Of a stretch of DNA of 36,360 nt, positions 16,604 to 34,570 are shown in pieces. The DNA lies in contig JAZDHK010000042.1 of NCBI GenBank assembly GCA_043806035.1, positions 1 to 36,360 on the forward strand, read 5' to 3'. The translations under genes were made by a program, and so were the position numbers. The notes beneath the pieces are model-generated. The model was not told the origin of the DNA. It was given only the letters and a program-made list of their open reading frames with translations, and made no database searches. Position 1 is the stretch's first letter; each line of letters opens with the position of its first letter. This DNA comes from an archaeon (GTDB lineage: Archaea > Nanobdellota > Nanobdellia > Woesearchaeales > UBA9642).

Positions 16604-17182
16604 CTTCATCGTTCCAGAAATGTGCAATCCTAGCGTCAGAGGAGCGGTGATGTCTATCTCCGCCTTTCCCGTCGAGTCGTACTTCCCAGAAATGTTCCAG
16701 TCCCAGCCAAACCAGCGCGTGTACTCTCCGATGATGATGCCGTCAGCGACGTGTAATTTGAGTGTGTTGTTTGGCTTTGGTCCCCAGCGTCTGATTTCGT
16801 ACTCGTCTTTTCCTGTCTGCTGTACGTTCCAGTTGAATTCTGACTTCTCGACTTTTCCCTGCAGCAGGTTCTCGTTGCTTGCGTGGAAGTCTGCGTCGGT
16901 GAGTGCGAGATCGAGATGCGTGTGTATGCTTGTTGGTGTTGTGCTTCCCGTGAGTTTTGCATCAGGATAGAATGTTTTGCCGACGTTCATGTCTATTCGG
17001 GAATTCCCATACGCTTGTTGTGCTGCTATTCCCGTGACGATTGTTGCGATGCTGTTTTTCGTCCTGCCTTGCTGGACTTTTTGCGAAAATCCGGGAAGGT
17101 CAAGGTATGAGCTAGACACGTACAGGCAGCCGATGATTGCTGCTGCGGTTGCTATGGTGAGGATTGTTTTCAGGCTTTTCAT
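16601..17182 (-). CDS. Secreted/membrane-anchored beta-rich hypothetical protein
   Basis: N-terminal hydrophobic segment; last gene of a 4-gene minus-strand run; its stop overlaps the tRNA-Arg 3' end. Confidence 0.75.
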   Translation of the reverse strand: MKSLKTILTIATAAAIIGCLYVSSSYLDLPGFSQKVQQGRTKNSIATIVTGIAAQQAYGNSRIDMNVGKTFYPDAKLTGSTTPTSIHTHLDLALTDADFHASNENLLQGKVEKSEFNWNVQQTGKDEYEIRRWGPKPNNTLKLHVADGIIIGEYTRWFGWDWNISGKYDSTGKAEIDITAPLTLGLHISGTMK

Positions 17183-19693: not shown

Positions 19694-22600
19694 ATGCGCA
19701 TGGTGAGTTGGTGGAAGACATTTTTGCTTGTGCTGTTTGCATTCTCATTGTTGCCTGCAGTGCATGCTAATGTCATGGGCTGTAACTGTGTTCTTGGCCA
19801 GAACCTGTATAATGGATTTAATGCGGAATGTTTTAATGCTAATCCTGACGCACCATATTGCCAGTTCAGAGGAGCGTACCAAAGCGTGTATAGTTGTGAT
19901 TATCCCATCACGGGAGGGAATTGTATTTTCTATCCGGATTGGCACATGTACATATGTAATGATTATTTTCCGTACTATTGTGACATTGTCCAAATTCCTT
20001 GCGGGACTTGCGTAGGGACTTCTTGTGAGTACACTTGTCCAATAGTTAGGAGTTGTGCAGATGGCAACACCATCCGCATTACTCATCAGCACACGGGTGA
20101 GGAGTGCGGCCAGTGTGTTTCTGGTTATGTGGAGGACATCGATTGTGCCCCCGGCTCGTATTGCAGCGGAGGTACGTGTGTTGCCGGTTCACCTGTGTCC
20201 TGTCCCCAGCCGGGTGACTGCCTCATGATGTTCGTCAGCAATATGAAGACGAGAGGGAACATCAGTGAGCCAGGATATGCGATGGGTCTGGATAGTGCTG
20301 ACGCAATTTGTCAGGGGGATGCAGAAGCGGCAGGGCTTCCTGGGGAATGGATTGCTTTCCTGAGTAGCAGTACACGCAATATTGCTTCGTTGTTAGGAGA
20401 TGCGACGTACAAGACTGTCGCGGGAAATAACATTGCAGACTCAAAGGCAGACTTGCTCGATGGCGACATCAACACGGCCATTCAAGGGCCGTGGGGAAAC
20501 GAGTATTACAGTTACTACGGCAACGATGTCTGGTCGGGAACTACCTATCAGGGAATGAATACGGGATACAATTGCCAGAACTGGAACAATGGGCTATACT
20601 CTGCCTCTGGAACCGAGGGGTATGTCTCGTTTGCAGGCGAGGGTGGTGGTTGGTGGGTCAATCTCGGTGAGAGTGGGTGCGATTATCTTCTTCCGTTGTA
20701 TTGTGTCCAGGTCTGCCCGGACAATGATGGAGATGGGGAGCATTCTGAATTGTGTGGTGGCGATGACTGCAATGATGACAATCCCGCGATTAATCCTGCT
20801 GTTTCGGAGCAGTGTGGGAATGACATCGATGATGATTGTGATGGCTTGACGGATTGCGTCGATGATGACTGCTGGGGAGACAGGGTGTACTGCAAATGGG
20901 TCTTTTTATCAACGGATACCTCGCTCACGGGCAGTCTTTCAGGAATGGCTTTGGCAGATCAAGTTTGCCAGAACGAAGCGAACGCGGCAGGCATAGGCAT
21001 ATCAAATAATAGGCAGTATGTTGCCTGGCTGAGCAAGTCAGGTGTTAATGCAAAAGACAGAATACCTGATGCGGAGTACATACTAAGAGATGGAACGCTC
21101 ATAGCGTACAACAAGAGCGATCTGATTGATGGATCAATAAGGAACCCTTTAATGAAGAATGCTACGGGTGCGGCGCGTTCTGATACGGTCTGGACGGGAA
21201 CGGTATCCAGCGGAGTCGGGACGGGAGGTTCAGACTGTACGAGTTGGACCAGTGGCGGCAGTACAGTATCTGCGTACAGAGGGTCCAGTACTTCGACAAG
21301 TGGAAGCTGGACATATGCAGGCACAAGCTACTGCAATAATCAGAATGCCGTGTACTGTTTTGAGACGGGTTCCTGCTCTGCGGAAGTCTGCACTGGCGGA
21401 TTGGATGAGGACTGTGATGGACAGTCAGATTGTGCAGATACGGATTGCTGTCTCAACACTGCATGTAAGGATGATCTCAATTGCCGTATGGTGTTCGTGA
21501 GTAATGCAACGACCATGGGATTCATGATCACTGATGATGTGTCTAAGGGTATTTTGCTTGGCACTTCTGCAGCGAACGCAATCTGCACGAGTGAAGCAAA
21601 CGCTGTAGGAGGAATCATGGCGAACAGGGCATGGAAGGCATACCTCAGCACCTCGAGCGGCGCTCCGTCAGTGAGCGGCAACAAGTTTATTCGTCCGGAC
21701 AATGTGATTGTGTCCACGAGCAACACCAACTTTCGTACTGGAACCCATGCTGCTCCCATCAGCAAGAATGCGGCAGGACAAACCGTTACAGGGGATGTGT
21801 GGACGGGGACGACGAGTTCGGGAACTGCCTCAGCATATAGGTGTACTGAATGGTTCGGTATAAGTCAGGGATTGTATGGGCAGAGCAGTGCGAGTGATGC
21901 GTACTGGACTCAGTACTCATCTTCTCCGTACAATTGCATAAATACAAAGCACGTGTATTGTGTTCAGACTGCCTGTGGTGGGAGCGAAATTTGTGGCAAT
22001 GGCATCGATGACAATTGTGATGGCAGCACGGATTGCGAGGATGTCAGCTGCTGCAACACTGCCTACTGTTCGAGGAGCAGGCAGTGCAGGATTGCGTTCG
22101 TGACCAGTACGCAAACCACAGGACTGATTCAGGAGCCAGGCTATGCGAGTGGTGTTGCAAGCGCCAATGCTATCTGCCAGCGCGAGGCGAAAGCAGCGGG
22201 AAGCCTCATCCAAGGATACAGGGCGTTTGGTGCCTATTTGGTGAATGTAAGCCAGCATCCGGGTATTAGCCTGAACTTGCAGACGAGAAGATACGTGCGG
22301 GTTGATGGTTCTATCATAACGACGAACGATATTCCTTGGCGGAATACTGCCAATTCCATTAACGTTGCCATCCAGCGTCGTGCGGATAACACTGCATTGT
22401 CAACAACGGTCTGGACGGGCATGAGAAGTGGCAATATTGTGTCAAGCAATCCGTGCAGCAATTGGAAGAACACCTCGGGAAACACGTATTATGGAACGAG
22501 CAGCAGCAGCACTGCGAATGTTTGGGGAAGCAGTGCCTCAGCTTCGGCATGTAGCGGCGCGAAGTCATTATATTGCGTCCAGCTCGAATGCACGTCGAGC

Positions 22601-23770
22601 GAGAGTTGTTCCGATGGCATTGATAATGACTGTGATGGATTTATTGATTGTGAGGACAGCGACTGTTCTGGCTCTGCAGACTGCTATTATGCATTCACCA
22701 CTTCTACACTGACAACTGGAAGAATCCAATTCCCGGGAACACAGACGGGCATTGCTTCAGCAAATGCTCTCTGCCAGTACGAAGCGAACTTATCTTCAAC
22801 AACAAGAGGCAAGGCGTTCGTTGCCTGGATAAGCACATCCGGTGCTGCAGGACCTGTGCAGAACGCCAGAAGTGTCATCGCCAACACCTCGTATTTCTTG
22901 GTGAACAGGACAAGGATTGCAAACAATACAGAAGACTTGACAGATGGCACTATTGCAACAACCATCAACCTCAACTCCTCAGGGGAAAGTCAGACAGGCA
23001 CATCGTATGTGCGGACGGGAACGAACAGGTCTGGCCAAGTGACATCAGGATACACGTGTGTTGATTGGACAGATAACACCTCGGCTTCAGGAGAGGCAGG
23101 GATACGCATTTCTTCAGGCTACCAATGGACTGAATTCACCACTCGCCCATGCTCTGAACTGCAACGACTATACTGCTTCCAAATTGCATGTGATGCTGAT
23201 GGCGTCGAAGATGGCGGCCAATGCGCTGACGGCATTGACAATGACTGTGATGGCCTGATTGACTGCCAGGACACTGCCAACTGCAACGGCGCAGGCAACT
23301 GCAACGAACGCTTGGCAGTGAACGGCTGCGCGAACAACATCGATGATGACAACGACGGGTATGCGGACTGCGTTGATTATGATTGTTTCTTTAGTCCTTC
23401 AGCAACGACTTGTGTGAATTCATCAGTTAGTGGGCAGGGTCAGAACGCGGTTCCGGGAACTAATTATTACTGTTCCAACGTCACCGCGAACGGTTCTGCA
23501 CAGGTAGGGCATTGTTGCCAGGTGAATAACGCGTGGAATGTGAGTGCGAATCAATGCACGCAGACTCAAGGTTGTTATACCTTCTCCGGGCCTTGTAAAA
23601 TTGAACCCAATAATCCTTTCAACCCAGCATCATCTCTCTATTGGTTTCAGATTCCAGACATCAGCGGATTTTGTATTGCTCCTGCTGGTCCTCCGTATTC
23701 GTTAGCGTGTACTCCTGTGTATTGGTTTGGGAATTGGTCGTACCAGTACACGCCAGTTGTCGTCGTCTAG
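19694..23770 (+). CDS. Large Cys-rich secreted protein with five DUF1554/endostatin-like domains and Asp/Cys-rich (DNDCDG) linkers
   Basis: Signal peptide; five repeats of FVS...A[DN]xxCxxEA...AxLS...[VI]W[ST]G...CxxW...YCx[QE], separated by ExCxxGxD[DN]xCDGxxDCxDxxC motifs. Confidence 0.88.
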   Translation: MRMVSWWKTFLLVLFAFSLLPAVHANVMGCNCVLGQNLYNGFNAECFNANPDAPYCQFRGAYQSVYSCDYPITGGNCIFYPDWHMYICNDYFPYYCDIVQIPCGTCVGTSCEYTCPIVRSCADGNTIRITHQHTGEECGQCVSGYVEDIDCAPGSYCSGGTCVAGSPVSCPQPGDCLMMFVSNMKTRGNISEPGYAMGLDSADAICQGDAEAAGLPGEWIAFLSSSTRNIASLLGDATYKTVAGNNIADSKADLLDGDINTAIQGPWGNEYYSYYGNDVWSGTTYQGMNTGYNCQNWNNGLYSASGTEGYVSFAGEGGGWWVNLGESGCDYLLPLYCVQVCPDNDGDGEHSELCGGDDCNDDNPAINPAVSEQCGNDIDDDCDGLTDCVDDDCWGDRVYCKWVFLSTDTSLTGSLSGMALADQVCQNEANAAGIGISNNRQYVAWLSKSGVNAKDRIPDAEYILRDGTLIAYNKSDLIDGSIRNPLMKNATGAARSDTVWTGTVSSGVGTGGSDCTSWTSGGSTVSAYRGSSTSTSGSWTYAGTSYCNNQNAVYCFETGSCSAEVCTGGLDEDCDGQSDCADTDCCLNTACKDDLNCRMVFVSNATTMGFMITDDVSKGILLGTSAANAICTSEANAVGGIMANRAWKAYLSTSSGAPSVSGNKFIRPDNVIVSTSNTNFRTGTHAAPISKNAAGQTVTGDVWTGTTSSGTASAYRCTEWFGISQGLYGQSSASDAYWTQYSSSPYNCINTKHVYCVQTACGGSEICGNGIDDNCDGSTDCEDVSCCNTAYCSRSRQCRIAFVTSTQTTGLIQEPGYASGVASANAICQREAKAAGSLIQGYRAFGAYLVNVSQHPGISLNLQTRRYVRVDGSIITTNDIPWRNTANSINVAIQRRADNTALSTTVWTGMRSGNIVSSNPCSNWKNTSGNTYYGTSSSSTANVWGSSASASACSGAKSLYCVQLECTSSESCSDGIDNDCDGFIDCEDSDCSGSADCYYAFTTSTLTTGRIQFPGTQTGIASANALCQYEANLSSTTRGKAFVAWISTSGAAGPVQNARSVIANTSYFLVNRTRIANNTEDLTDGTIATTINLNSSGESQTGTSYVRTGTNRSGQVTSGYTCVDWTDNTSASGEAGIRISSGYQWTEFTTRPCSELQRLYCFQIACDADGVEDGGQCADGIDNDCDGLIDCQDTANCNGAGNCNERLAVNGCANNIDDDNDGYADCVDYDCFFSPSATTCVNSSVSGQGQNAVPGTNYYCSNVTANGSAQVGHCCQVNNAWNVSANQCTQTQGCYTFSGPCKIEPNNPFNPASSLYWFQIPDISGFCIAPAGPPYSLACTPVYWFGNWSYQYTPVVVV

Positions 23771-23858
23771 GCTGCTGTGAGCGTGGGGATTTGTTGGCGT
23801 TCGGTCATTTTTTCTCGCATCGAAATATTTAAATAGTTATGATTGCTAGTTGGTTCAC

Positions 23859-24404
23859 ATGAACGTATTTACAATCAATGGGTGTTATGAGATTATCTTG
23901 TTGCTCCTCAAAAGGCCGATGCATGGGCGCGGTCTGGCGGACTATCTGAGACTCCCGCTCACGACCGTGCAGAACAGACTGCATGTGCTCACGCGCGAAG
24001 GGGTCGTAGACTATCACACTGAAGGAAAAAATAAGATATTCGCGCTGAAAAAGAACCCTGTGGCGAAAGCGAACATCATCATGGCAGAGCAGTATAAACT
24101 ATTAAAACTGTATCATTCCTATCCTGAACTCCAAGTAATCCTTGATGAAGTGGCGAAACAGTTCAAAGGCATGACTATCCTATTCGGGAGCTACGCAAAA
24201 TTCCTCGCGAAGAAAGACAGCGATATTGACCTGTATATTGCATCAAATGAAAGAAAAGTAAAAGAGCGCGTCCAGCAGGTCAATAGCAGGTTAAGCGTGC
24301 AGATGGGGATGTTGTCAAAAACAGATGCCCTTTCCCAAGAGATTCTACAGGATCACGTCATCGTAAGCGGGGTGGAGGAGTACTATGCAGCATTTCCTCA
24401 CTAA
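23859..24404 (+). CDS. HTH + minimal nucleotidyltransferase (MNT) antitoxin
   Basis: N-terminal HTH (HGRGLADYLRLPLTTVQNRL); LFGSYAK...DSDIDL; TTTAAATA ~25 nt upstream. Confidence 0.88.
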   Translation: MNVFTINGCYEIILLLLKRPMHGRGLADYLRLPLTTVQNRLHVLTREGVVDYHTEGKNKIFALKKNPVAKANIIMAEQYKLLKLYHSYPELQVILDEVAKQFKGMTILFGSYAKFLAKKDSDIDLYIASNERKVKERVQQVNSRLSVQMGMLSKTDALSQEILQDHVIVSGVEEYYAAFPH

Positions 24405-24867
24405 ACTGAAAACGGAAGGAAAACTCGAGCTAGTGGAGCCGTCGAAGAACATAAGCGAGGCGTATGGCGCAAAAGCGAATGATTGCCTTCGTGCAGCAAA
24501 AGTCCTGCATGATGCGAGACTCTATGAGAACTCGATAGCGCAGAGCTACTATGCGATGTACAATGCCATCCAATCTTGCCTGTTCAGAACGGGTATAAAA
24601 TGCGAAAACCACACTGCGGCCATATTCTTGATACGCTATCTTTTCGAGAAGCCCTTGCTTGAGAAAAAAATTCTTGCAGCGAAGAAAGAACGGATTGACA
24701 GACAATACTATGTGACTGGAGAGCAGAATGAGCCGGTGACTAAGGAAAGTTCTCTTATGATGATTAAGGATGCAGAATCAAGTCTCATAGAACTACAGCT
24801 CTTGCAACAACGCCTCTTTGAGAAGGATATCAAACTGATGAGGGCTAAAATCAGCATGCTTACCTGA
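24385..24867 (+). CDS. HEPN-domain protein
   Basis: SYYAMYNA, CENH, ERIDRQYY; overlaps the MNT gene. Confidence 0.88.
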   Translation: MQHFLTKLKTEGKLELVEPSKNISEAYGAKANDCLRAAKVLHDARLYENSIAQSYYAMYNAIQSCLFRTGIKCENHTAAIFLIRYLFEKPLLEKKILAAKKERIDRQYYVTGEQNEPVTKESSLMMIKDAESSLIELQLLQQRLFEKDIKLMRAKISMLT

Positions 24868-24897
24868 ATCGGAAGCACATGCGCATATCTTGTTATG

Positions 24898-24965
24898 CTC
24901 GCCTGCACACAGGTATCTGGTTCGGCAATTGGACATATCAGTACATGCCTGTTGTCGTCGTCTAG
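24898..24965 (+). repeat. Displaced copy of the 3' tip of 19694..23770
   Basis: LACTQV(fs)WFGNWTYQYMPVVVV* versus LACTPVYWFGNWSYQYTPVVVV* (23702-23770); last 15 bp identical. Confidence 0.9.
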
Positions 24966-25048
24966 CGCGCCGTGATTCTTCTGCTTGTTTCGGATGGAAC
25001 ACTGGGACAGGTACGCGCATGATTTATGCCACTTTTGTTCCTCTGCGT

Positions 25049-25091
25049 GATGCGCTGATTGTCTTTCAGGACAAGAAAAGTGTGGCATCGC
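25049..25091 (+). pseudogene. Tiny Bro-N gene remnant
   Basis: DALIVFQDKK followed out of frame by VWHR, versus TALVVFQDKKIRRVWHK of the Bro copy starting at 31773. Confidence 0.6.
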
Positions 25092-25209
25092 GTGTGAGCG
25101 CGGGCACGATTTGTACGTACCTTTCCGTGACTGCGATACGCACTGAGCACGTGTAACGACGTAAAAACCGAAAAACTTATATAAATAAATGATATTATAG
25201 TATCATAAG

Positions 25210-26067
25210 ATGGAAAATTTAATAAACGCATCTGTGCTGGTGCGAAACGAACCGCTGCTCAGGGAGAGACTGTTTACGGACATCCAGTTCGCAATCCTCA
25301 AGAAACGACTGGGACACAAACCCTTGAACAGCACAGAGCGTACGTACTACTACAAATTCATCAAACCAAAGATAAAAGCGATGATGGCCTTCTTCAACAT
25401 CACCGACCTGAACATCCAAGGAGAGGAACATATCGTGCAAGGCAGAAAGGAAGAAGCAATAACAATACTCAAGAGGCTGGAAAAGAAACACAAGAACAAG
25501 AAGATACTGATTTCGGGGTCGTTCCTCTTCAACAAGGAATATGCTGATATCGATGCGTTCGTCATCACCACGTATACCAAGGAGGATTACGTCATGGGCA
25601 GGCTGCACGTGACGTTTCTGCCAGAATCCTCGCTAGATTCTCTGTTCTTTCAGTCCATTGCTCAAATTAGCGTGAGCAATTTCATCCATGCACGAATAGC
25701 TGCGCCAAGAATGAAGCTTGAGCATCTGTTGCAGGTGTATGAGCTGCTCATCAATGCCGTGCTGAATACGGAGGAGCACGAGAAGGAATTGCGGGAGTTC
25801 ATTCTGCAAACAGAATATTACTCGCGAGGCGTTGTTCTCAATCCAAAGCAGCTGTACGCGCTCAAGGAAAAACTTGCCCGGAAAAACACGCGTGCATTGG
25901 CCAATACGCTTATTAATGCACTACTCCTCGAGTACACGAACGATGTGGAACGCAAGCTCAAACAGCACATCGCTGATTACAAAAAGCTGCTACGTCAGTA
26001 CAAGACGGCAAAGAACTTGCCTATCTACATCGACACGTATGAACAGGTGATGTCCCTTGCGACCTGA
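25210..26067 (+). CDS. Nucleotidyltransferase-domain protein (putative antitoxin)
   Basis: ISGSFLFNKEYADIDAF (GS-x-DxD); TGATA-N6-TATCA palindrome at 25190-25205. Confidence 0.7.
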   Translation: MENLINASVLVRNEPLLRERLFTDIQFAILKKRLGHKPLNSTERTYYYKFIKPKIKAMMAFFNITDLNIQGEEHIVQGRKEEAITILKRLEKKHKNKKILISGSFLFNKEYADIDAFVITTYTKEDYVMGRLHVTFLPESSLDSLFFQSIAQISVSNFIHARIAAPRMKLEHLLQVYELLINAVLNTEEHEKELREFILQTEYYSRGVVLNPKQLYALKEKLARKNTRALANTLINALLLEYTNDVERKLKQHIADYKKLLRQYKTAKNLPIYIDTYEQVMSLAT

Positions 26068-26374
26068 AGACGCCAAATCCCTTATCAAAAACGTGCTCGG
26101 ATCACCCATCACGTTCGACGGGCATTTTGGCAAGTGTTTTGAGCATCTCAAGGAGACGCAGCAGCAAGAACTCCTTGCCTGGATTCAGGACTGCAAAGCA
26201 CGCAAAACAAATCCTCTACAATCAAAAACGAACAGGGAACTCATAGGATTTGTCCGCAGGATAGGCAGCAACTTGCGGGCCATTCTGACAAAAAAGAAAC
26301 GAGGTTATTTTCTCGTCTTGTTCCTGGACAAACACAAATACTATGAAACAGAGATGCAGAAGCTCGGTTTCTGA
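26057..26374 (+). CDS. Small basic protein, possibly RelE/ParE-like toxin
   Basis: Overlaps upstream gene; RRIGSNLRAIL...FLVLFLDKHKYYE resembles a RelE-fold C-terminus. Confidence 0.5.
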   Translation: MRPEDAKSLIKNVLGSPITFDGHFGKCFEHLKETQQQELLAWIQDCKARKTNPLQSKTNRELIGFVRRIGSNLRAILTKKKRGYFLVLFLDKHKYYETEMQKLGF

Positions 26375-26784
26375 CGGCTCGGGTGTTTTCTTAATCCTGT
26401 ACGATCTCTTGGATGATGTCTTTGATGAGCGCGTCGACCTTGAACCTGCGTATGCGCCGTGTCGCTGTAAAGATGACAGTATGGTATCCTGATACTCTTC
26501 AAGCACGTACATGGATTCTCTGAGTTTCATGAGATCTCCTTGAACGATAGATCAGGGTGTGGTCTGACGATGATTTTCCCTTCACCGTCGACTGGTCCGA
26601 TGCAGGTTGCGTGCAGTTTCCATGCTTTGTTAAGAAAACGTTCTTGCTTATAACTTTTCGAAAGGAAGTCCAGTCACTCCCTGTGCTTTTCTTAAATCTG
26701 TCCGAAAATCTTCCGGAAAATTCTGCGCAAGAATAATGAAGACAATCATGTTGCTACCACAAAATGATTATTGGAGGGAAGAAC

Positions 26785-27066
26785 ATGCAAAGACTGGAAC
26801 AACTGATAAAATACGACCTGATACGACCAAGCCTCGGGCTAGTCATGTATTCGATAACGCCCGAACTGCCTAAATCGTTGACCATTATTGATTTGCCGCA
26901 GTCCCGTCTTCAAGTGCACATCCACGGGAGTGCTGATGATAATTGCCTGTTTGGCAGCGTCAAACCGTATGGGTCTGAAAAAGAGTGCATTCCTTTGGAC
27001 TCGTACCAGTTGGCAATGGCAGACTATTATGCAGATCAGCTTAACTTGAGCAAGATTGATAAATGA
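26785..27066 (+). CDS. Hypothetical protein
   Basis: ORF with GGAGGG SD before ATG 26785. Confidence 0.55.
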   Translation: MQRLEQLIKYDLIRPSLGLVMYSITPELPKSLTIIDLPQSRLQVHIHGSADDNCLFGSVKPYGSEKECIPLDSYQLAMADYYADQLNLSKIDK

Positions 27067-27085
27067 TGGTTGCAAGGATGGCAAT

Positions 27086-27367
27086 ATGAATTTGTCAACT
27101 CTGAAAAAAGAAGTAGTGGACGTTTATGAAGAATATCTCAGCGGCGGGAAAACTCCCGAGTTGTGTCTTCGTGCTCGTGAATTGCATGTCAAGTACTGCA
27201 CTGCTTCGCCGATACTTCCATCCGACATGTTTGCTGCGATAATGCGTCTGATTGATATTGCAGTAGACACGCACGTCCCACCTCCTGACGCGGATGAAGT
27301 GAAACGTATCCTTCACGAATTGCGAACACTATCACCGAACGAGATCTCGCGGAGAGAATGTGCGTGA
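27086..27367 (+). CDS. Hypothetical helical protein
   Basis: ORF follows 26785..27066 after a 19-nt gap. Confidence 0.55.
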   Translation: MNLSTLKKEVVDVYEEYLSGGKTPELCLRARELHVKYCTASPILPSDMFAAIMRLIDIAVDTHVPPPDADEVKRILHELRTLSPNEISRRECA

Positions 27368-27484
27368 TGTAAACAGTCTCATCTTAGAGGGGAAAGAAGC
27401 GCTATCTTTCCTGAACTGCCCTGAAGCGTCAACATATGCGCTTCATACCTCTTCTGAATGGACTGGATTCCTGGACGTATTTGG

Positions 27485-27518
27485 TCTGATATGATACGCC
27501 CTGTCCAGCTCTTCTGCA
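27485..27518 (-). repeat. Displaced 3' tip copy 4 of 31825..34497
   Basis: Core CTGATATGATACGCCCTGTCCA at 27486-27507; reads AEELDRAYHIR. Confidence 0.9.
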
Positions 27519-27567
27519 TGAGCTGGGTTTGTGGCTTCGTTGAGCGGGTGGTTCTCAAAAAGCAGAT

Positions 27568-27622
27568 GTTATGTGATATAACCAGAAGATATAAATACTC
27601 ATTCTTTGTTATTGTAGATAAC
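27568..27622. promoter_or_regulatory. Paired GTTAT-N5-ATAAC palindromes around a TATA-like box
   Basis: 27568-27582 and 27608-27622, immediately before ATG 27623. Confidence 0.75.
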
Positions 27623-27949
27623 ATGAATGAAAAGAACCACGTGTTGATGTTCAAGGCATCTGCGGATACGCTGTTCCGGATGAAGGACTATACGTCAGCA
27701 ACTATACTCTACTTCAAAACGTGGTTCGCGCTGCATGATTACTTGCTCTTGAAGAAGCTCGGCATCACGCCAAAGGATCACGCGGAGCGTTTTCGTCTTC
27801 TTGAACGTGCGTTTCCTGATGAGTATCTCGCGCTCGACAAGGAGTACACGACATATAGAGACACGTATTCTCGCATCATCTCAGCAGAGGATTGCAGAAG
27901 GGTGCGCGAGGTGGTGGTGCATGCCCTTGAACATCACGGCATTGTCTAA
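27623..27949 (+). CDS. HEPN-like protein
   Basis: ATILYFKTWFA, PKDHAERF, YRDTY; overlaps the downstream MNT gene. Confidence 0.7.
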   Translation: MNEKNHVLMFKASADTLFRMKDYTSATILYFKTWFALHDYLLLKKLGITPKDHAERFRLLERAFPDEYLALDKEYTTYRDTYSRIISAEDCRRVREVVVHALEHHGIV

Positions 27950-28514
27950 ACGATGCAGGGCTTTCGTGAAAGAGTATCCTGCCGTGCAGGACATCATTCT
28001 CTACGGGTCCGTGCGCAAAGGGAAGGGCGCGCCTGCAGATACTGATATTCTCTTGCTCTTTGATGGAAGGATAGACAAGGATGTCGAATACGCATTCCGA
28101 AAAGCGGTCGTGGTGCCCAATTTGGCTGTCGTTTCAAAGACGAGTATGGATGACACGTTCCCTGCCCGAGAAGGAATTTTGTTCGAAGGGTATAGTCTGG
28201 TGTATCGGCAGGCAATTTGTTCCAGGTATGGTTTCAGTCCGTTCGGTTTTTTTCTCTATGATACGGGACAGCTCTCCAACACGATGAGGACGCGGTTCTA
28301 TTATGCGCTGAATGGACGATCGAGAGAAGGTGTCGCGAAGCGGCTGCGCATGATGAAGCTTTCGGCAAACGTTCTCGCCGTTCCTCTACCTCATCTGGAG
28401 GAGGCGAAAGCATTTCTCGTAGCATGGAAGTTGCCGTTCGTGTTCGTGCCGATGCTCATTCCAGAACGGCTTGCACGAAAAGACTTGTTAGTTATACCTA
28501 ATAACAAGAAATAA
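27921..28514 (+). CDS. MNT nucleotidyltransferase with extra C-terminal domain
   Basis: IILYGSVRKG...DTDILL; C-terminal YDT...RTRFYYALNGR domain. Confidence 0.8.
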   Translation: MPLNITALSKRCRAFVKEYPAVQDIILYGSVRKGKGAPADTDILLLFDGRIDKDVEYAFRKAVVVPNLAVVSKTSMDDTFPAREGILFEGYSLVYRQAICSRYGFSPFGFFLYDTGQLSNTMRTRFYYALNGRSREGVAKRLRMMKLSANVLAVPLPHLEEAKAFLVAWKLPFVFVPMLIPERLARKDLLVIPNNKK

Positions 28515-28566: not shown

Positions 28567-28642
28567 TCACTGCCTGATATGATACGCCCTGTCCAATTCT
28601 TCCGCGTCAGACAGGTTGATCGCTTCGTTTGTCGCTTTGATG
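28567..28642 (-). repeat. Displaced 3' tip copy 3 of 31825..34497
   Basis: IKATNEAINLSDAEELDRAYHIRQ*; core at 28574-28595. Confidence 0.95.
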
Positions 28643-28765
28643 CCATGTGTGGCAAAGGTACGATTTTGTCGTACGTTTCTTCTCTCTACAGATAGTCCTT
28701 GGCCACTGGCCAGGTATGCGCATGATTTATAAGCATGAACATCTGCTTTTCTCGGGAGGTTGAAC

Positions 28766-29598
28766 ATGCGTGAGGATACTGCACTGGTCGTCTTCCAGGA
28801 TAAGAGAATAAGGAGAAGGTGGTATAGTGGTGAATGGTTCTATTCAGTGGTTGATATCGTCGGAGTCCTCACCGATAGTCCTACCCCTAGGCAGTATTGG
28901 GGGAAGGTCAAGGACAGAGAATTCATGGCTCTCGAACTGTCCCCAATTTGGGTACAGTTGAAGCTGCCTGCAGAGGATGGAAAACTGAGGTTCACGGATT
29001 GTGTGCATACGAAAAATGCTTTCAGACTCATTCAGTCTATACCCTCAAAGAAAGCCGAACCATTCAAGCAATGGCTGGCACAGCTGGCTCAGGATCGCAT
29101 ACGGGAGATAGAGAATCCCGAGCTTGCGCAAGACCGGATCAAAGAGTATTACGAACTCAAAGGCTATCCGAAAGAATGGATTGACAAGCGCCTGAGAGGA
29201 ATAGCCATCAGACAAGAACTGACGGGTGAGTGGAAAAATAGAGGTGTTGTCGAAGAAAAAGAGTTTGCAATACTCACCAATGAAATCAGCAAAGCAACCT
29301 TTGGAAAAACAGTTGTGAGTACAAAGAATTTAAGCGACTGCAGAAGAAGAACCAGAATTTACGAGACCACATGACCGATTGGGAACTCATCTTGACGATG
29401 GTTGGAGAAAAAGCCACGACCGACATCACTATCGCAAAAGACTCTCGCGGATTAGGTCAGTGCAAGGATTCCGCTCAAGAAGGGGGAAAAATCGCGCACA
29501 ACACGAGAAAGGAACTCGAGCAAAAGATAGGAACCCCCTTGGTCTCCGCAGATAATTTTCTTGGGAAAACACTGCAGAAAAAGAAACGCGCACCTTAA
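28766..29598 (+). pseudogene. Bro-N domain (antirepressor-like) gene with a 1-nt frameshift near 29315
   Basis: FQDKRIRRRW...WFYSVVDIV...IPSKKAEPFKQWLA; after FGKTV the homologous EYK...QNLRDHMTDWEL continues in another frame. Confidence 0.85.
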
Positions 29599-29604: not shown

Positions 29605-29652
29605 CTACTCCCTGATATGATACGCCCTGTCCAGCGCTTCCGCGTTCGGCAA
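29605..29652 (-). repeat. Displaced 3' tip copy 2 of 31825..34497
   Basis: LPNAEALDRAYHIRE*; core at 29612-29633. Confidence 0.95.
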
Positions 29653-29847
29653 ACGTATGATTTTATCCTACGGGTTTCCTCTGTCTGAAAAGGATTTCCT
29701 GAAAATTCGTGGATGTTTGGTGCAAAACGTTATTACTGGGTATGTTGTCAAAGTGACGTTGCAGATGATCGTGTGAAAACAACAGCTAGTGTTCGGGAGA
29801 GAGGTGGAGCCAAAACATTTATAAATATAAGTAATTATTCTTACCCT

Positions 29848-30405
29848 ATGGTAAGATTTTATACCTATTTGGAAATGTTCCTTGATGCGGTGGACAAACA
29901 AGTGAGTCTTGGTGATTTCGAACGCAGGTTCAAGACCCCTCACCAGACGGTACGCAAGCATCTTGAGCGTTTTGTCCGTGCAAAGGTACTTAGGGAAGAA
30001 AGAAGAGGGAGGTTTCTCTTCTACTCGCTGAACAGGGAATTGCCTCTGACTCGAGAGTATCTTGTCCTTTGCGAGAAGGAACGCCTGCTCAGTTTCTTGG
30101 AGAAGAGCCAGCTGTTCTCGAGATTGTATGCTGCGCTTTCAGGATTCTTTCCAGGTGCAACGATTGTCTTGTTTGGCTCTGCGGTGACGCAGAATGAATT
30201 CTCTGACATTGACCTGCTGATACTCTCCGGAAGCAAAGAACTCAGGAAGGCACTGACGAATTTTTCCATGACGTATTCCGTGAAGATACATCCTGTGCAG
30301 ACGACAAAGGAATACTTGACTCCGACATTCATCAAAGAAGTGAGAAAGAAACACGTCATATTCAATAATCACGACAAGGCGATGGTGGTGCTGTATGGGT
30401 ATTGA
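29848..30405 (+). CDS. HTH + MNT antitoxin
   Basis: SLGDFERRFKTPHQTVRKHLE HTH; LFGSAV...SDIDLL; CTTACC-N4-GGTAAG palindrome over the start codon. Confidence 0.85.
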   Translation: MVRFYTYLEMFLDAVDKQVSLGDFERRFKTPHQTVRKHLERFVRAKVLREERRGRFLFYSLNRELPLTREYLVLCEKERLLSFLEKSQLFSRLYAALSGFFPGATIVLFGSAVTQNEFSDIDLLILSGSKELRKALTNFSMTYSVKIHPVQTTKEYLTPTFIKEVRKKHVIFNNHDKAMVVLYGY

Positions 30406-30853
30406 GTGGTGCAAGAAGCAGGGAATGAAGCTTGTCGAACCCAATGATGATCTGGCAGAAGAATACTACTTGAGTGCGGAAGAGACGCTGCGAGTGACGA
30501 ACCTCATCAAGAATTCAGGCTCGAACATGTGGCTGGCTACCCAGAAATACTATGTGGAATACTTGGCAGCATATGCGCTGCTCATGAAGCTAGGTGTCAA
30601 GGCTGAAATCCACTCCTGCACGATTGATATCATCCGCCTCCTTGAGGAAGAAGGCATCATCACTTTCCGCTTTGCCGACCAACTCATTCACGATAAAGAA
30701 CTAAGGATTGACAACCAGTACTATCTCAAGAACAGGCCAGTCGACCTTAATCCCAAGGCGCTTGCCGAACTGCTGTTGCACACGCGCAAGCTGCTCGATA
30801 CCCTGACTGAGAAACAAGTGCAGCATATAAGAAAAAAGATAGCTACTGCCTGA
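30395..30853 (+). CDS. HEPN-domain protein
   Basis: KYYVEY, AEIHSC, LRIDNQYY; homologous to 24385..24867; stop codon lies inside the tip repeat. Confidence 0.85.
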   Translation: MGIEWCKKQGMKLVEPNDDLAEEYYLSAEETLRVTNLIKNSGSNMWLATQKYYVEYLAAYALLMKLGVKAEIHSCTIDIIRLLEEEGIITFRFADQLIHDKELRIDNQYYLKNRPVDLNPKALAELLLHTRKLLDTLTEKQVQHIRKKIATA

Positions 30854-30924
30854 TATGATACGCCCTGTCCAATTCTTCCGCGTTGGGCAGGTTGATCGCT
30901 TCGTTCAATGCTTTGATATTTGCG
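30843..30924 (-). repeat. Displaced 3' tip copy 1 of 31825..34497
   Basis: ANIKALNEAINLPNAEELDRAYHIRQ*; core at 30850-30871. Confidence 0.95.
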
Positions 30925-30933: not shown

Positions 30934-31773
30934 TCAGAGTCGCGGGAGCCTCTTTCTTTTCTCCCTTTCAGGCTCTGCCAAATAATTTTCTTCAGAAATG
31001 ATGGTTTTGCCTATTCTTTTTTCAGCGTCCTTTCTTGCGCTTCCTGCGACTTCTCCGCCTGATTTGGCGGCGCGCTTGCAGTCTTTGAACTGCTTTGCGT
31101 CTTTGTTTCTTGTAATCTCTGTTGTTACTCTTTCTCCGAGCATGTTGAAGATGAGTTCAAGGTCAGTCATGTGATCCCTGAGATTCTGCTGTTTCAGGCC
31201 TTTGTGTTTCTTGTACTCCTCGATCGTTTTCCCGAAGGTTGCCTTGCTTATCTCATTGGTGAGGATGGCATATTCCCTGTCTTCTTCAACGCCTCTCTTC
31301 TTCCATTCGTCGGTGAGTTCCTGCCTGACAGCGATGCCTCTGACTCTTTTCTCTATTCAATCATCAGAATACCCTTTTTCCCTGTACAACTCCTTCATTC
31401 TCGCTTGCGCAAGCTCGGGGTTCTGTATTTCCTCAACACGTTCATGGCCGACTCTGGCCAGCCACAACTTAAATGGCTCTGCATTCTTTGAAGGTATTGC
31501 TTGCACTATCCTGAAAAGCACCTCGGTATTGGCGCAGTCAGTGAAGTACTGCTTGCCATCCGAAGAGGGCAGTTTGAGCTGGTTACATTTTGTAACCACC
31601 TCGCTTCCCTCCTTGCCCAGTCTGTGCTTGAGGACTTTCCAATAATTACGGGCATCTTCGCTCCTGCTAAGAGCGCCAACAATGTCAACCACTGAAAACC
31701 ACCAGGCATCTTTGTGCCAGACTCTCCTGATCTTCTTATCTTGGAAGACGACAAGCGCAGTTTCTTTATCCAT
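30934..31773 (-). pseudogene. Bro-N domain gene with in-frame TGA at a conserved Trp (31357-31359)
   Basis: KGYSDD*IEKRVRGIAVRQEL versus KGYPKEWIDKRLRGIAIRQEL; frame stays open to 30934. Confidence 0.85.
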
Positions 31774-31824: not shown

Positions 31825-34497
31825 TCACTGCCTGATATGATACGCCCTGTCCAGCGCTTCCGCGTCCGGCAGGTTGATCGCTTCGTTCAACGCCTTGATG
31901 TCCGCGCGGGACATGGTGGACCTCTGGCTCTGTTGGTGGAGTACTGTTTCATAGGGTGTGAGTGTTGAGTCTACAGTGCCGACTTCGTTAGGGAATGCAA
32001 GTGCGCTTAAATTTTCTGCAATTATGTGATTTTGTGGCAAGTATTGTACTATTTCCATATATGCTGATTCAAGAATACCGTCGAAATTTCTATCGTACGT
32101 GGCGATGAATGACATGGTTAGTGATTTGTAGCTAGGTAGTAATCCATCGTGGGTTGTTCCGTATCCTTCGATGTAATAGCTGCTGTCCTGCAGTGTCGCT
32201 CTGTGCGAAGTTGGCCTGGCCCAGGGATGGATGATGTTGCTGTTTATTTCGTTGAGGACGAGATTTTCTTGCAGTATTTGTTCTTGGTCAGTCCATTGCA
32301 GGCCATTGTTTGGGTTCGTCTTCCCGATCCACCACGTGTACCCGCCGTTCTCGAAGCCCTGGTTTGCGTTGGAGAAATTTATCTTTGCAAGACCAAACCA
32401 AGATGGATTAGATGGGATTGGCACGTTTCTTGCTTCTGCAATAAATCGCCAATATCTAAATGGAGATATGTTTTGCTCTTGCAGCGCATCATATGTTGAT
32501 ACGAGGATGGTCGTGTCACGATCAGAAGCGGTATTGATGTCTGCGGTTCTTTCGAAGCTCTGCACGTTGTTGTTGAGCGTGTGCACTGCCCTGACGGGAA
32601 TGATGCCGCCTGGCAATACTTGCGTGTGCAGCATATCGCCAAAAAGGTAATCCTGCCCGTTGATAGTAACGATGCCATTGGATAGAGGTTCGAGTGTCTC
32701 GAGGTCGGCGATGCTGATGCGTAAATCCGTCATTGGCAAGACGTTATAGTTGAGCGTTCTGTCTGTGAACGCGCCGTGCGGGTCAGTGACGCGTAAAGAA
32801 ACATTGCCTGGCCCTGAAGCGTCTGGCTGCAGTGCAAAGCGCAGCACGTGATTGTCTAGTGATGCCGTTGCGGGTCCGTTCTGTGACTGTATTGCGAAGG
32901 TGAGCAGGGAGTCGGGTGATTGCGCATCTGATGTGACTGCATCGAGGTCAACGCTTTGCATGCTGCTGTCCTCGTACGCTGTCCTTGTGGGCAGGGTCAT
33001 TTGTGGAGGGGTGTTTCTTGACTGTATGGGCTGTTCGAGGATGATGAGGGAGTCCTTGCCTTGGATGCTCGCGCTGGCAAGGAAGTTGCCGATGTCGTAC
33101 GTTGCGGGAATGAGGATGTTTGCTGGCGTCACCAAACAAAACGAGGTGTCCGGTCCGAAGCCTTTGTTGTAGAGTATGGAGAGGGTGTCTGGTCGTGAGC
33201 TTTGTACTTGGATGTTTGCGTTCGTGACGAGGGGAGCATTCCCTATGTTGGGGGTGACGGTGAGGCTTGCGTTGTACGTAATGGGGGGGATGGTGCTGAC
33301 GTGGAGTGGCTGTTCCTGCGTGATGATGGTGTCTCTCGCGGTGAGGATTGCGCGCAGGAGATATTCTCCGTTCATGTATGTTCTGTTGATGCTGAACGGG
33401 CTCTGCGGATTGTTAATAGTGGTGTCTGTGCCGTCGCTAAAGTCAACGTTCAGCCGTTGGATGAGGGAATCATGGCCTAGTGTTGTGCCGAAGCTGGCGA
33501 GTATGTTTGCAAGTAAGGGTTCTGTGCCTTCAGCAGGGTCAACGAGGAAGTTGAGGTAGTGCTGTGCATTCACTGCCTGCACGGGCTGTGTCAGGATGAT
33601 GCTTGAGTCCTGTCCGACGATGGTTGCTCGTGCAAGGTATTCTCCCCTGCTGCCGTACAGGAGGGGAATGATGGTGAGGCTGTCCGGGTGTACGATGACG
33701 GTGTCAGGGCCTTCTCCTTTGTTGAATCGCAATGATGCAATGAGATTTTGCGGGTAGGCAATGATTCTTGCTTCTGTCTGCAATGGCCAGACCCCTGTTG
33801 AGGGATTGATGTCGAGCGATCCCCTTATTTCTCCAGGCTGAACAATAGGATAGACGTGGATTGGCCTTTGCACGATGATTTCTCTGCTGCACAAGCGGAA
33901 TCTTGCGCGGGCTTGGACGGTATAGTCTCCTGCCGTTGCATACTGGTGAGGGACTTGCAGGGTGAACGTTAATTGATGCTGGGGAACGTTGACTGTAGTG
34001 TCAAGTCCTTCTGTCGTGAGCCGTAGCGTCCTGAAGAATGCTGCGGGAATGACCGTTGCTGAGAGCAGGGCTTCTAGGCCTTCACCCACTGAGTCAGGAG
34101 CGTCTACGCGGAGGAAGAAGCAGCGTGCTCGTGTCGTATCCCTGGCGCGTATGAACAAGTCTCCGTTGAGGTAACCGTCTGCAGTAACCAATGTTGGTCG
34201 GGTCGTGTCCGTGAACTGGTATTCGAGAGTGAAGTCCTCGGTTTCCTGCTCTGGTTTGAGGACGCCGTCAGGCAGTTCCTGATACGTGAGGTTGATGGAG
34301 TCAAGGACTACATTGCCGTCGACGTGCAGGTAGTGTTCGACGGGGATGTCGTAGGGCACTTCGTCTTCGAGGGTGAGCTGCATGTTCACGGTGGGAGTTG
34401 GTTCTTCTGGTTTTGTGGGCGTTTTGTCGCAGCCGATGATGATGCTGCCAGCTACCGCTGTGGCGAGTGCCGTTTTGAGCAGGTTTTTCGCGCGCAT
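31825..34497 (-). CDS. Large lipoprotein-like surface protein with PKD/Ig-like and cadherin-like repeats
   Basis: Signal ending IIIGC; repeated beta-sandwich units (e.g. INPSTGVWPL, VDPAEGTEPL, VTPNIGNAPL); NTPP...EDS...VDLD unit; TTTATAAA 24 nt upstream. Confidence 0.85.
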   Translation of the reverse strand: MRAKNLLKTALATAVAGSIIIGCDKTPTKPEEPTPTVNMQLTLEDEVPYDIPVEHYLHVDGNVVLDSINLTYQELPDGVLKPEQETEDFTLEYQFTDTTRPTLVTADGYLNGDLFIRARDTTRARCFFLRVDAPDSVGEGLEALLSATVIPAAFFRTLRLTTEGLDTTVNVPQHQLTFTLQVPHQYATAGDYTVQARARFRLCSREIIVQRPIHVYPIVQPGEIRGSLDINPSTGVWPLQTEARIIAYPQNLIASLRFNKGEGPDTVIVHPDSLTIIPLLYGSRGEYLARATIVGQDSSIILTQPVQAVNAQHYLNFLVDPAEGTEPLLANILASFGTTLGHDSLIQRLNVDFSDGTDTTINNPQSPFSINRTYMNGEYLLRAILTARDTIITQEQPLHVSTIPPITYNASLTVTPNIGNAPLVTNANIQVQSSRPDTLSILYNKGFGPDTSFCLVTPANILIPATYDIGNFLASASIQGKDSLIILEQPIQSRNTPPQMTLPTRTAYEDSSMQSVDLDAVTSDAQSPDSLLTFAIQSQNGPATASLDNHVLRFALQPDASGPGNVSLRVTDPHGAFTDRTLNYNVLPMTDLRISIADLETLEPLSNGIVTINGQDYLFGDMLHTQVLPGGIIPVRAVHTLNNNVQSFERTADINTASDRDTTILVSTYDALQEQNISPFRYWRFIAEARNVPIPSNPSWFGLAKINFSNANQGFENGGYTWWIGKTNPNNGLQWTDQEQILQENLVLNEINSNIIHPWARPTSHRATLQDSSYYIEGYGTTHDGLLPSYKSLTMSFIATYDRNFDGILESAYMEIVQYLPQNHIIAENLSALAFPNEVGTVDSTLTPYETVLHQQSQRSTMSRADIKALNEAINLPDAEALDRAYHIRQ

Positions 34498-34570
34498 ACT
34501 CAAAATATACACAACTCCTCTTTATAAATTTTGTTATTACTCAATAGTGAATATGTTGTTTGGGGTGGTG

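Follow-up and report, generated by a model that had tools for sequence, protein, structure and literature searches.

In a 36,360-nt stretch of DNA from a DPANN archaeon (the window, meaning the whole stretch that was analysed), a 1.1-kb two-gene MNT/HEPN module with its own archaeal promoter lies directly 3' of the stop codon of gene A, and behind it comes a second gene A tail, dead and diverged. Judging from its sequence, the module is a putative selfish toxin–antitoxin (TA) pair. As the cassette follows the stop codon and a dead tail copy follows the cassette, gene A stays intact and a former gene end has been pushed downstream.

TA modules are well known to occupy differing positions in closely related genomes, and to our knowledge no route has been pinned down for their movement beyond plasmids, phages, transposons and integrons. 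DPANN archaea have few classical mobile elements, and the layout described here bears on how they gain genes for defence and other accessory functions while the existing genes of their highly compact genomes remain unbroken. The minimal unit (promoter, MNT and HEPN) is found beside core genes of many small-genome archaea, with several units stacking per address, and hints at how selfish pairs of this kind spread although they encode no enzyme for the purpose. Its footprint, a duplicated and often allele-like host gene end, offers a simple bioinformatic signature for further cases and leads to a concrete, testable model of homology-addressed insertion. Literature on TA cassettes, direct repeats, archaea and HEPN/MNT in DPANN contained no such layout by title or abstract.

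The cassette and the repeated end of gene A

The locus comprises two convergent surface protein genes, A and X, and the arrays between them, with the following features (coordinates, strand, description and basis).

19694..23770, + strand: gene A, 1358-aa Cys-rich repeat surface protein (ORF, Pfam DUF1554, MopE-like motif)
23702..23770, + strand: live tail A, the last 22 codons of gene A plus TAG, upstream repeat copy (repeat comparison)
23811..23858, + strand: cassette promoter, with BRE-like purine run, TATA box and operator-like motif (read from sequence)
23859..24404, + strand: HTH-MNT, winged-helix plus minimal nucleotidyltransferase, 181 aa, putative antitoxin (Pfam NTP_transf_2, Polbeta)
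24385..24867, + strand: HEPN protein, 160 aa, putative toxin (Pfam HEPN, 1.4e-7)
24898..24965, + strand: displaced tail A, diverged, one base deleted, without a gene body upstream (repeat comparison)
25005..25100, + strand: BRO-N remnant, promoter plus first ~15 codons (repeat D15; alignment to two BRO-N cassette heads)
25210..27367, + strand: array middle, a 285-aa protein and a 105-aa ORF, then an overlapping 100/103-aa pair (ORFs)
27481..27560, - strand: tail X copy c1, outermost and most diverged, stop codon lost (repeat comparison)
27458..28514, + strand: cassette of a 163-aa ORF and a 237-aa MNT-like nucleotidyltransferase (ORF/Pfam)
28567..28648, - strand: tail X copy c2 (repeat comparison)
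28760..29598, + strand: frameshifted BRO-N gene, now two ORFs of 204 aa and 75 aa (ORF/Pfam)
29605..29653, - strand: tail X copy c3, short, ~47 nt (repeat comparison)
29713..30853, + strand: second cassette of HTH-MNT (230 aa) and HEPN-like (152 aa) proteins (ORF/Pfam)
30843..30924, - strand: tail X copy c4 (repeat comparison)
30935..31773, - strand: BRO-N gene, in-frame TGA where its paralogue has W (ORF/Pfam)
31825..34512, - strand: gene X, 895-aa surface protein; live tail X is its last ~27 codons, 31825-31906 (ORF, repeats)

Between the gene A stop codon and the promoter lies non-conserved filler (23771-23810), and homology of the cassette to its closest relative (L033) starts at 23811. 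The TATA box (TTTAAATA) is at 23828-23835 and an operator-like TGGTTCA motif lies 24 nt upstream of the HTH-MNT ATG, an arrangement that recurs in other MNT loci. The HTH-MNT open frame spans 23850-24404, with its likely start at the ATG at 23859, and the product (NTP_transf_2, 29.7 bits; cut-off 21) has 48 homologues, in most cases from DPANN, and a GS...DxD motif whose residues G110, S111, D122 and D124 do not vary among 24 homologues. The HEPN gene adjoins the MNT gene, as in HEPN/MNT TA modules, overlapping it by 20 nt, and its product (HEPN, 32.1 bits; cut-off 22) is 29% identical to the 152-aa partner in the cassette at 29713-30853. HEPN proteins are RNases; the Rx4-6H motif is not obvious in this one, where an R-x7-H is seen by eye in the translation.

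The preliminary description of this DNA had reported that the last 22 codons of gene A reappear behind an HTH-MNT and HEPN pair with a 1-nt deletion, which comparison of the repeats, together with the ORF and Pfam assignments, confirms. The tail at 23702-23770 (22 codons and TAG) recurs on the same strand at 24898-24965, and both copies are in the same frame up to a common stop. Their final 48 nt align without gaps (41/48 positions identical), the six codons upstream are also homologous (LACTPV in the live tail, LACTQV in the copy), and the nucleotide absent from the displaced tail belongs to the codon that separates the two blocks (TAT versus T-C). The probability of a 48-nt match with at most 7 mismatches arising anywhere in the genome by chance is ~6e-12, and the 1.50-Mb genome contains no third copy. 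The terminal GTTGTCGTCGTCTAG, also pointed out earlier, is indeed identical in both, but this 15-mer does not stand out statistically as a core: when 7 differences are permuted over 48 nt, 45% of permutations contain an identical run of at least 15 (p = 0.45), and the differences are not clustered.

Substitutions between the two copies fall predominantly at third codon positions (11/15; p = 0.0018 versus 1/3, and p = 0.021 versus the 0.44 expected for one live and one decaying copy, a rough estimate), and the latter test pooled over all tail pairs gives p = 0.065. The displaced tail therefore looks like a former working gene end, which supports the earlier view of it as a diverged allele rather than a fresh duplication and disfavours an old duplication in situ. 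A relative of gene A from a genome of the same family (29% identical) ends in a similar C..P..FFG...Y...PV.II* motif, so the tail is native to gene A. When its last 179 aa were compared with 523 candidate proteins, only gene A itself matched. Similarly, a codon-degenerate pattern for a donor allele of the tail, run against 400 other genomes of the order, metagenome_contigs and viral_contigs, recovered only the two copies described here.

It is scarcely credible that the displaced copy is all that remains of a tandem gene A paralogue whose body was deleted, a scenario that, according to the preliminary description, would refute its reading. Paralogues with common tails do occur, for example at one related locus (L062) where a complete neighbouring gene of 312 aa ends in the middle repeat copy. 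However, there is no gene body 5' of the tail A copy, the HEPN gene ending 30 nt upstream of it, and remnants of 18-138 nt also abut cassettes beside single-copy core genes and a tRNA of other genomes, which show the same pattern.

Beyond the displaced tail, the BRO-N remnant (25005..25100) is, from its sequence, a probable earlier occupant of the site 3' of gene A. The ORFs of the array middle (25210..27367) had no Pfam matches; the translation of the 285-aa protein contains an NTase GS..DxD motif.

Arrays at gene X and in other DPANN genomes

At gene X, the layout of cassette and displaced tail occurs four times over, the cassettes being of the MNT/HEPN and BRO-N kinds; one displaced tail lies on the gene A side and four on the gene X side. 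The two tails are unrelated, as had been proposed, with a profile of either matching its own copies only. All five X tail copies have an identical 22-nt stretch in common (identical runs of 22-29 nt; p = 0.003-0.09 by permutation), and copies c4, c2 and c1 have similar repeat limits. The most distal copy, c1, is the most diverged, and the copy most like the live tail is c3, although c4 lies nearest gene X. Growth of the arrays inward from both convergent genes is plausible. An orthologue of gene X (77% identical) elsewhere has the same tail, ending in ...AAEELDRAYHIRQ*, and is followed by a hairpin and a convergent gene only, with no tail copies behind it. It was the single match to the tail X pattern in metagenome_contigs, and there were 0 matches in genome_contigs and 0 in viral_contigs. 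Three displaced X tails carry the E of this orthologue where the live X tail has A, which is easier to reconcile with alleles that are older or were imported than with copying of the tail now in place.

The preliminary description had called for a genome-wide scan for downstream duplicates of gene ends. We compared the last 36 nt of 6802 open frames of at least 80 codons with the 8 kb downstream, allowing at most 9 mismatches, and obtained 40 matches. These included genes A and X, and a match on contig C19 led to a second array in the same genome, but the other matches examined were internally repetitive surface genes or spurious frames. Further matches lie on contigs C26 (37073-38596), C29 (47419-45083) and C5 (12910-15183). 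No RNA family was identified in the arrays with Rfam.

In other DPANN genomes, cassettes were tightly bracketed by duplicated host sequence at 14/62 testable loci of the same MNT family (z of at least 5), compared with 2/124 pseudo-cassette control positions (Fisher p = 4.6e-6), and at z of at least 18 the counts were 7/62 versus 1/124 (Fisher p = 0.002). Flanking duplication was undetected in the other 48/62 loci. The duplicated pieces, from different genomes, were 18-138 nt long and without a common sequence. They included the 3' ends of SMC, prepilin-peptidase and PadR genes, the last 40 nt (3' end) of tRNA-Leu in one relative, and the 5' ends of ERCC4/XPF and TctA genes. The suggestion made earlier that the mechanism is not tied to one sequence is thus strongly supported, with MNT/HEPN cassettes bracketed by unrelated pieces of host genes. 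Cassette borders were variable (pre-promoter filler of ~0 to 100 nt, post-HEPN tail of 10 to 90 nt), and no conserved termini were found across the compared MNT loci. Neither these borders nor the duplications of 18-138 nt match the conserved termini and short, fixed-length target duplications of transposons and insertion sequences. Moreover, one address was used repeatedly within arrays on the gene X side of the window and at two related loci (L053 and L103), which argues against random transposition.

Insertion could instead have produced a long target-site duplication, for example through capture at nicks with a wide stagger or through template switching during replication, with the initially identical copies then diverging in place. 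The range of repeat lengths and the 98-100% identity of some pairs are in keeping with this, as are the frameshifting deletion in the dead tail A copy and a duplicated piece that spans the ends of two convergent genes (L092), and in compact genomes only duplications that span a gene end would be expected to persist. We nevertheless consider it quite unlikely, given the third-position excess in tail A, the repeated use of the same target with similar limits within arrays, and the closer similarity of c3 than of the nearest copy, c4, to the live X tail. In addition, differences are clustered beside long identical stretches at L057 (p = 0.0016), X-c1 (0.003) and L084 (0.02), a mosaic-like pattern that does not fit uniform decay.

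Routes by which cassettes may reach gene ends

The reading that we favour, at about even odds, is that recombination dependent on homology inserts cassettes at gene-end addresses and pushes older gene ends outward. The gene end would serve as a portable 'address': incoming DNA would carry a cassette adjoining a homologous copy of the host gene end and would recombine with the resident gene by means of the host's own homologous recombination (RadA), through a single crossover if circular, or, if linear, through one crossover in the gene body and another in the short tail. The product would have the order live tail, new cassette, displaced old tail, and repetition would stack cassettes, the newest adjoining the gene. 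Addiction to the toxin–antitoxin pair would favour keeping the inserts and a dedicated recombinase would be unnecessary, with the founding event at each new address being a rare illegitimate join. This model leaves unexplained the placement of the first cassette exactly at the stop codon, and why the near-identical repeats of L092 (98%) and L107 (100%) likewise stop no more than 1-2 nt from where the gene does. No recombination intermediates were seen. Excision, circle or cassette-border joints were absent from the only runs that contain the stretch, Logan contigs of one study at a depth of ~2-6, a result that is uninformative on excision; one 247-nt Logan contig bridges the gene-end-to-cassette junction.

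Site-specific integration by a recombinase acting in trans on miniature elements, whose att site would carry the replacement gene end as in e14/icd and tRNA islands, appears unlikely, although several observations are in its favour. The architecture is that of e14 in icd in the account cited (PMC6379469), the piece duplicated in one relative is precisely the 3' 40 nt of tRNA-Leu, a classic integrase target, the high-identity repeats end at the gene end, and the 22-nt stretch is identical in all five X copies. Seven tyrosine recombinase genes (Phage_integrase) on other contigs of the genome could act in trans. However, Pfam searches of the ORFs found no integrase or transposase in the window, nor was either found among 62 neighbour proteins of 10 related loci (62/98 ORFs of at least 130 aa, 20 cassette and 16 outer ORFs being left out, with a reach of ~3-4 kb). 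The absence of a common sequence among addresses argues against one site-specific enzyme, and many specificities would be needed for unrelated addresses of 18-138 nt. The cassettes also lack conserved ends, and the identical 15-mer of tail A is no longer than chance would give.

An integron-type array (CALIN), in which the repeats would be attC sites and their overlap with gene ends a coincidence, is extremely improbable. Archaeal integrons and CALINs exist and include TA genes among their cassettes, according to the parts of the survey used here (PMC9668308), and the cassette size (~1-1.2 kb) and array form fit. In contrast, 0/12 single-stranded DNA folds (both strands of 6 repeat copies) were more stable than shuffles in the manner of attC (z from -1.01 to +0.66), and no GTTRRRY/RYYYAAC pair of core sites was seen at the borders read by eye, where tail A ends in GTTGTCG, a misfit to GTTRRRY. 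The best score for the integron integrase TIGR02249 in this 93.7% complete genome was 114.7 bits against a cut-off of 265, and the repeats are demonstrably host gene ends.

A homing-type spread, in which a nuclease would cut cassette-free alleles and repair would copy in the cassette together with a cut-resistant gene end, is very improbable. The layout is the same as that of the fungal mitochondrial atp6, atp9, cox2 and nad3 gene hybrids in the sections cited (PMC3630166). However, Pfam searches of all cassette ORFs found NTase, HEPN, HTH and BRO-N domains only, with no homing endonuclease (LAGLIDADG, GIY-YIG or HNH) or other DNA nuclease domain. Furthermore, HEPN proteins act on RNA, and the cassettes are self-promoted and unfused to the host gene.

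If homology-dependent recombination is the route, it may be one instance of a wider, recombinase-free cassette system of DPANN archaea in which short fragments of gene ends (3', 5' and tRNA) travel with ~1-kb selfish cassettes and provide the cell's homologous recombination with portable attachment sites, a generalisation that we put forward tentatively. On this reading any conserved gene end could become an 'integron platform'. If true, it would provide a long-missing route for TA modules to move on their own, with gene ends stacking TA and other accessory cassettes.

Comparison with known systems

HEPN/MNT pairs are known as type II/VII TA modules. The module described here resembles them in its NTP_transf_2/Polbeta and HEPN domains, overlapping genes and own promoter with an operator-like repeat, but differs in having an N-terminal winged helix fused to the MNT and no obvious Rx4-6H motif, and its toxin and antitoxin are putative.

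C-terminal displacement and orphan arrays at Rhs/CdiA and T6SS effector–immunity loci were reportedly described by Jackson in 2009. For such loci, the portions of a later study used here describe the same displacement and orphan arrays and propose homologous anchoring in the conserved gene with a short or illegitimate second join (Kirchberger 2017, PMC5361080). As in our arrays, new modules beside a conserved gene push older ones outward. However, what those systems displace, as that account presents them, is a toxin domain together with the cognate immunity gene, whereas here it consists of 13-27 conserved terminal codons only and the cargo is unrelated to host gene function. No toxin tip with a cognate immunity gene was found in the displaced segments, the cargo being self-promoted MNT/HEPN or BRO-N.

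Integrons and CALINs have been reported from archaea including Nanoarchaeota, with TA genes making up 10.5% of functionally annotated cassette proteins in the part of the study cited (Ghaly 2022, PMC9668308). They share with the present loci ~1-kb, TA-rich cassette arrays and separating repeats that are similar within a genome, but here there is no attC fold, core site or IntI, and the repeats are pieces of host genes.

The insertion of e14 in icd creates a 163-bp pseudo-icd duplication, with the element supplying the working 3' end (PMC6379469, relevant section). In e14/icd and tRNA islands, as there described, the 3' end of a gene is likewise duplicated at both borders, the gene stays intact, and repeated fragments of the gene end mark out tandem arrays. 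Those elements encode or depend on an integrase of their own specificity, acting at a fixed att core, whereas the elements described here are ~1.1 kb long, have no integrase found nearby and use many unrelated addresses.

In the fungal mitochondrial gene hybrids (Allomyces atp6; Glomus atp6, atp9, cox2 and nad3), a foreign C-terminus and a mobile ORF precede the displaced native C-terminus, and the copies of the atp6 hybrid have 63.5% DNA identity versus 91% protein identity (PMC3630166, sections cited). These hybrids, so described, resemble the present loci in that a cassette sits where the host gene ends (3'), between a working, foreign-looking C-terminal segment and the displaced native one, and in that the two end copies differ far more in DNA than in protein. 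Their cargo is a LAGLIDADG/GIY-YIG homing endonuclease that is often in frame with the host gene. In contrast, the cargo here is a self-promoted MNT/HEPN pair or BRO-N without a DNA nuclease, insertion is past the stop codon, cassettes are stacked in arrays, and 5' gene ends and a tRNA end are also used.

The duplicated end of gene A

The source genome is 1.50 Mb in size and 93.7% complete, and the window, one entire 36.4-kb contig, includes genes for TrmB-type regulators and diphthamide synthase; its cassette genes have relatives in Woesearchaeota-type DPANN genomes. The features bearing on the repeated gene ends are as follows.

19694-23770 (+): gene A, surface protein of 1358 aa with a DUF1554 domain and Cys-rich repeats
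23702-23770 (+): live tail A, the last 22 codons of gene A plus stop
Between the tail A copies: HTH-MNT (minimal nucleotidyltransferase, putative antitoxin) gene, likely start ATG 23859, 24 nt 3' of a TTTAAATA box
Between the tail A copies: HEPN (putative toxin) gene, overlapping the HTH-MNT gene
24898-24965: displaced tail A, a second copy of gene A's last 22 codons plus stop
31825-34512 (-): gene X, convergent surface protein of 895 aa, ending ALNEAINLPDAEALDRAYHIRQ before its stop

Repeat, ORF and domain evidence bear out the preliminary description of a repeated gene end enclosing an HTH-MNT/HEPN pair. The tail A copies are identical at 41 of the final 48 nt, with six further upstream codons homologous and one base missing from the displaced copy; a match of this quality is expected by chance in the genome about 6e-12 times, and profile and mismatch scans found only these two copies. 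The final 15 nt, including TAG, are indeed the same in both, as had been pointed out, but an identical run of that length is expected 45% of the time given 7 differences in 48 nt and should be given less emphasis.

The displaced copy had been described as the end of a diverged allele. Third codon positions hold 11 of the 15 substitutions in aligned codons, and 9 of the 12 altered codons are synonymous; the third-position excess is significant against an even spread (p = 0.0018) and less markedly so against free decay of one copy with the other under selection (p = 0.021, resting on our rough expectation for such a pair). For this pair, a foreign allele is thus moderately favoured, an old duplication in place being the alternative. 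A 29%-identical protein from a genome of the same family ends ...C.P..FFG...Y...PV.II, the same terminal motif as gene A (...CTPVYWFGNWSYQYTPVVVV); tail A is therefore a conserved end native to its protein family and was not carried in by the cassette. No closer relative of gene A, and hence no donor, was found in the collections searched. The promoter and first codons of a BRO-N gene survive as a remnant directly 3' of the displaced tail, so a BRO-N cassette formerly came after gene A, as one does gene X today. Elsewhere in the window, a Fic/DOC protein gene (11452-12345, -) is located upstream of the array region, and a tRNA-Arg(TCG) gene (16529-16604) abuts, by 4 nt, the 3' terminus of the ORF 16601-17182 on the minus strand.

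The gene X side and other arrays in the genome

The last 47-80 nt of gene X recur in four additional copies, spaced 982-1238 nt apart, and a 22-nt stretch is identical across all five. Between these copies are units containing a BRO-N gene interrupted by an in-frame stop, another HTH-MNT/HEPN pair, an oppositely oriented BRO-N gene with a frameshift, and an MNT-like pair. A metagenome contig (L113) encodes a 77%-identical gene X orthologue that has this tail as well. Behind its stop come a hairpin, with a T run, and a convergent kinase gene, and no tail copies lie within 2 kb; the gene X tail, too, is therefore native, and the array has been added. Three displaced tails encode glutamate, as does the orthologue, where the live tail encodes alanine, and the copy most like the live tail is not the one nearest the gene. 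Both features are easier to explain if the displaced tails are imported or older alleles rather than repeated copies of the present tail. The hairpin behind the orthologue (L113 2031-2100) is GC-rich and the convergent gene is of PAS/histidine-kinase type, surroundings that look more like those of a bacterium than of a DPANN archaeon.

Both array BRO-N genes are broken: 28760-29598 by a frameshift (204 + 75 aa) and 30935-31773 by an in-frame TGA at its paralogue's tryptophan. They are 59% identical and oppositely oriented relative to the same repeat. Same-sample contigs with 90% or more similarity to the BRO-N cassette (30850-31851) are much deeper (bin sums up to 41, single joints at 121-240) than the remaining array (2-6), and these contigs continue into unlike sequence; a far more abundant community entity has a close relative of this BRO-N. 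A 285-aa protein (25210-26067), which had no Pfam match, may be an MNT-HEPN fusion: its first half carries an NTase GS..DxD motif, and its second is weakly similar to the HEPN-like 152-aa protein.

Contig C19 (~52500-59500; 2000-9000 of the stretch L114) has another array of cassettes of nucleotidyltransferase type. It comprises two HTH-MNT pairs, in one of which Pfam identifies the partner as HEPN, together with DUF6036 NTase pairs, a DUF4037 protein and a fragment of a Fic gene. Its cassettes are separated by five repeat copies of ~100-140 nt, 75-88% identical, and the array contains no integrase, tRNA or Rfam family. The third MNT/HEPN pair of the genome is on contig C15, ~900 nt downstream of the rRNA 3' end, and no repeat was detected on its flanks; the 23S rRNA gene there holds a group I intron (L115 5351-8001; 6344-6578).

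Host gene ends beside related cassettes in DPANN genomes

At E <= 1e-5, 48 homologues of the HTH-MNT protein were found, chiefly in DPANN archaea. Searching species genomes with an alignment of 24 of these turned up 430 loci that encode the protein. The best 80 were used, and 62 of them had testable flanks, the other 18 having <300 nt on one side. When the two 400-nt flanks, one preceding MNT and the other following HEPN, were locally aligned, 14 of these 62 loci reached z >= 5 and seven z >= 18, against two and one of 124 pseudo-cassettes placed elsewhere in the same loci (Fisher p = 4.6e-6 and 0.002, respectively). Additional bracketed cases are L092, where the repeat spans two cassettes, and the short-flank loci L062 and L075. 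The duplicated pieces are host sequence:

L107: last 40 nt of tRNA-Leu(TAG), 100% identical
L092: last 127 nt of an SMC gene, 98% identical
L084: last 70 nt of a prepilin-peptidase gene
L103: 3' end of a PadR gene, three copies
L057: first 113 nt of an ERCC4/XPF gene
L033: first 26 codons of a TctA transporter gene, adjoining the closest relative of the window cassette
L061 and L069: 5' ends of small genes

The adjoining host gene is intact in every bracketed case. Conservation extends from the BRE/TATA box as far as the HEPN stop; variable filler separates this unit from the repeat, measuring ~0-100 nt at one border and 10-90 nt at the other, and common termini are lacking. The tail duplication in the window is thus one case of a widespread pattern. 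The SMC gene of L092 (712-5889) also has an intein with a LAGLIDADG domain. Many MNT homologues lie on contigs of 0.9-1.35 kb, about cassette size, which could reflect assembly breaks at the borders of a unit present in several contexts, although short contigs are the rule in that collection.

The case named against the preliminary description, that the copy is a tandem paralogue remnant, is unsupported: no gene body lies 5' of displaced tail A, and a tRNA and single-copy core genes show the same pattern. At L062 the repeat forms the end of a full neighbouring gene (one relative).

Candidate mechanisms and known systems

Several established elements were rejected. Archaeal integrons and CALINs with toxin-antitoxin genes exist (PMC9668308); here, none of 12 single-strand repeat folds was better than shuffles, no core sites were visible, and the best integron-integrase score in the genome fell far under the cut-off. 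A classical integrative element is opposed by the lack of an integrase or transposase in the window; none occurred either near ten bracketed loci, where 62 neighbour proteins were scanned (62 of 98 ORFs, excluding 20 cassette and 16 outer ORFs). A homing cassette would carry a DNA nuclease domain, which is absent, and a transposon does not fit the variable cassette borders, long duplications of variable length and reuse of the same target.

The addresses, as we term the duplicated host gene ends, have nothing in common except their gene-boundary position, upholding the suggestion that the mechanism is not tied to one sequence. An existing address is reused repeatedly with similar limits, and in several repeat pairs, identical stretches alternate with strongly diverged ones in a mosaic (L057, p = 0.0016; gene X with its outermost displaced tail, p = 0.003; L084, p = 0.02). 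Together with the allele-like substitutions, these features point to homology-addressed recombination between a resident gene end and a copy beside an incoming cassette, a reading to which we give roughly an even chance. Tails in a donor array might recombine to form a circle of tail and cassette, which one crossover would integrate; alternatively, a linear donor fragment would undergo one crossover in the gene body and one in the short tail. Either route would yield a live tail, a new cassette and a displaced tail, and repeated rounds would build an array with the newest unit adjoining the gene. Toxin-antitoxin addiction would bias which of these insertions remain.

The main rivals are a site-specific recombinase acting in trans, for which seven tyrosine recombinases on other contigs of the genome could serve, and an insertion that itself generates a long duplication. 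Near-identical repeats also have limits within 1-2 nt of a stop codon or tRNA end, and recombination by homology leaves unexplained both these exact ends and the first cassette's arrival at a new address. Reads containing window DNA come from one study and are too thin for excision or circle forms to show. Overall, the preliminary reading was essentially right and its observation is confirmed.

The same logic has been proposed for Vibrio effector-immunity arrays and Rhs 'C-terminal displacement' (PMC5361080), and similar-looking products are described for gene hybrids formed by fungal mitochondrial mobile ORFs (PMC3630166) and for e14 in icd (PMC6379469). The arrangement thus belongs with known kinds, gene-end-replacing insertions and displacement arrays; its cargo is unusual, no enzyme is in sight, and it is distributed broadly among DPANN archaea.
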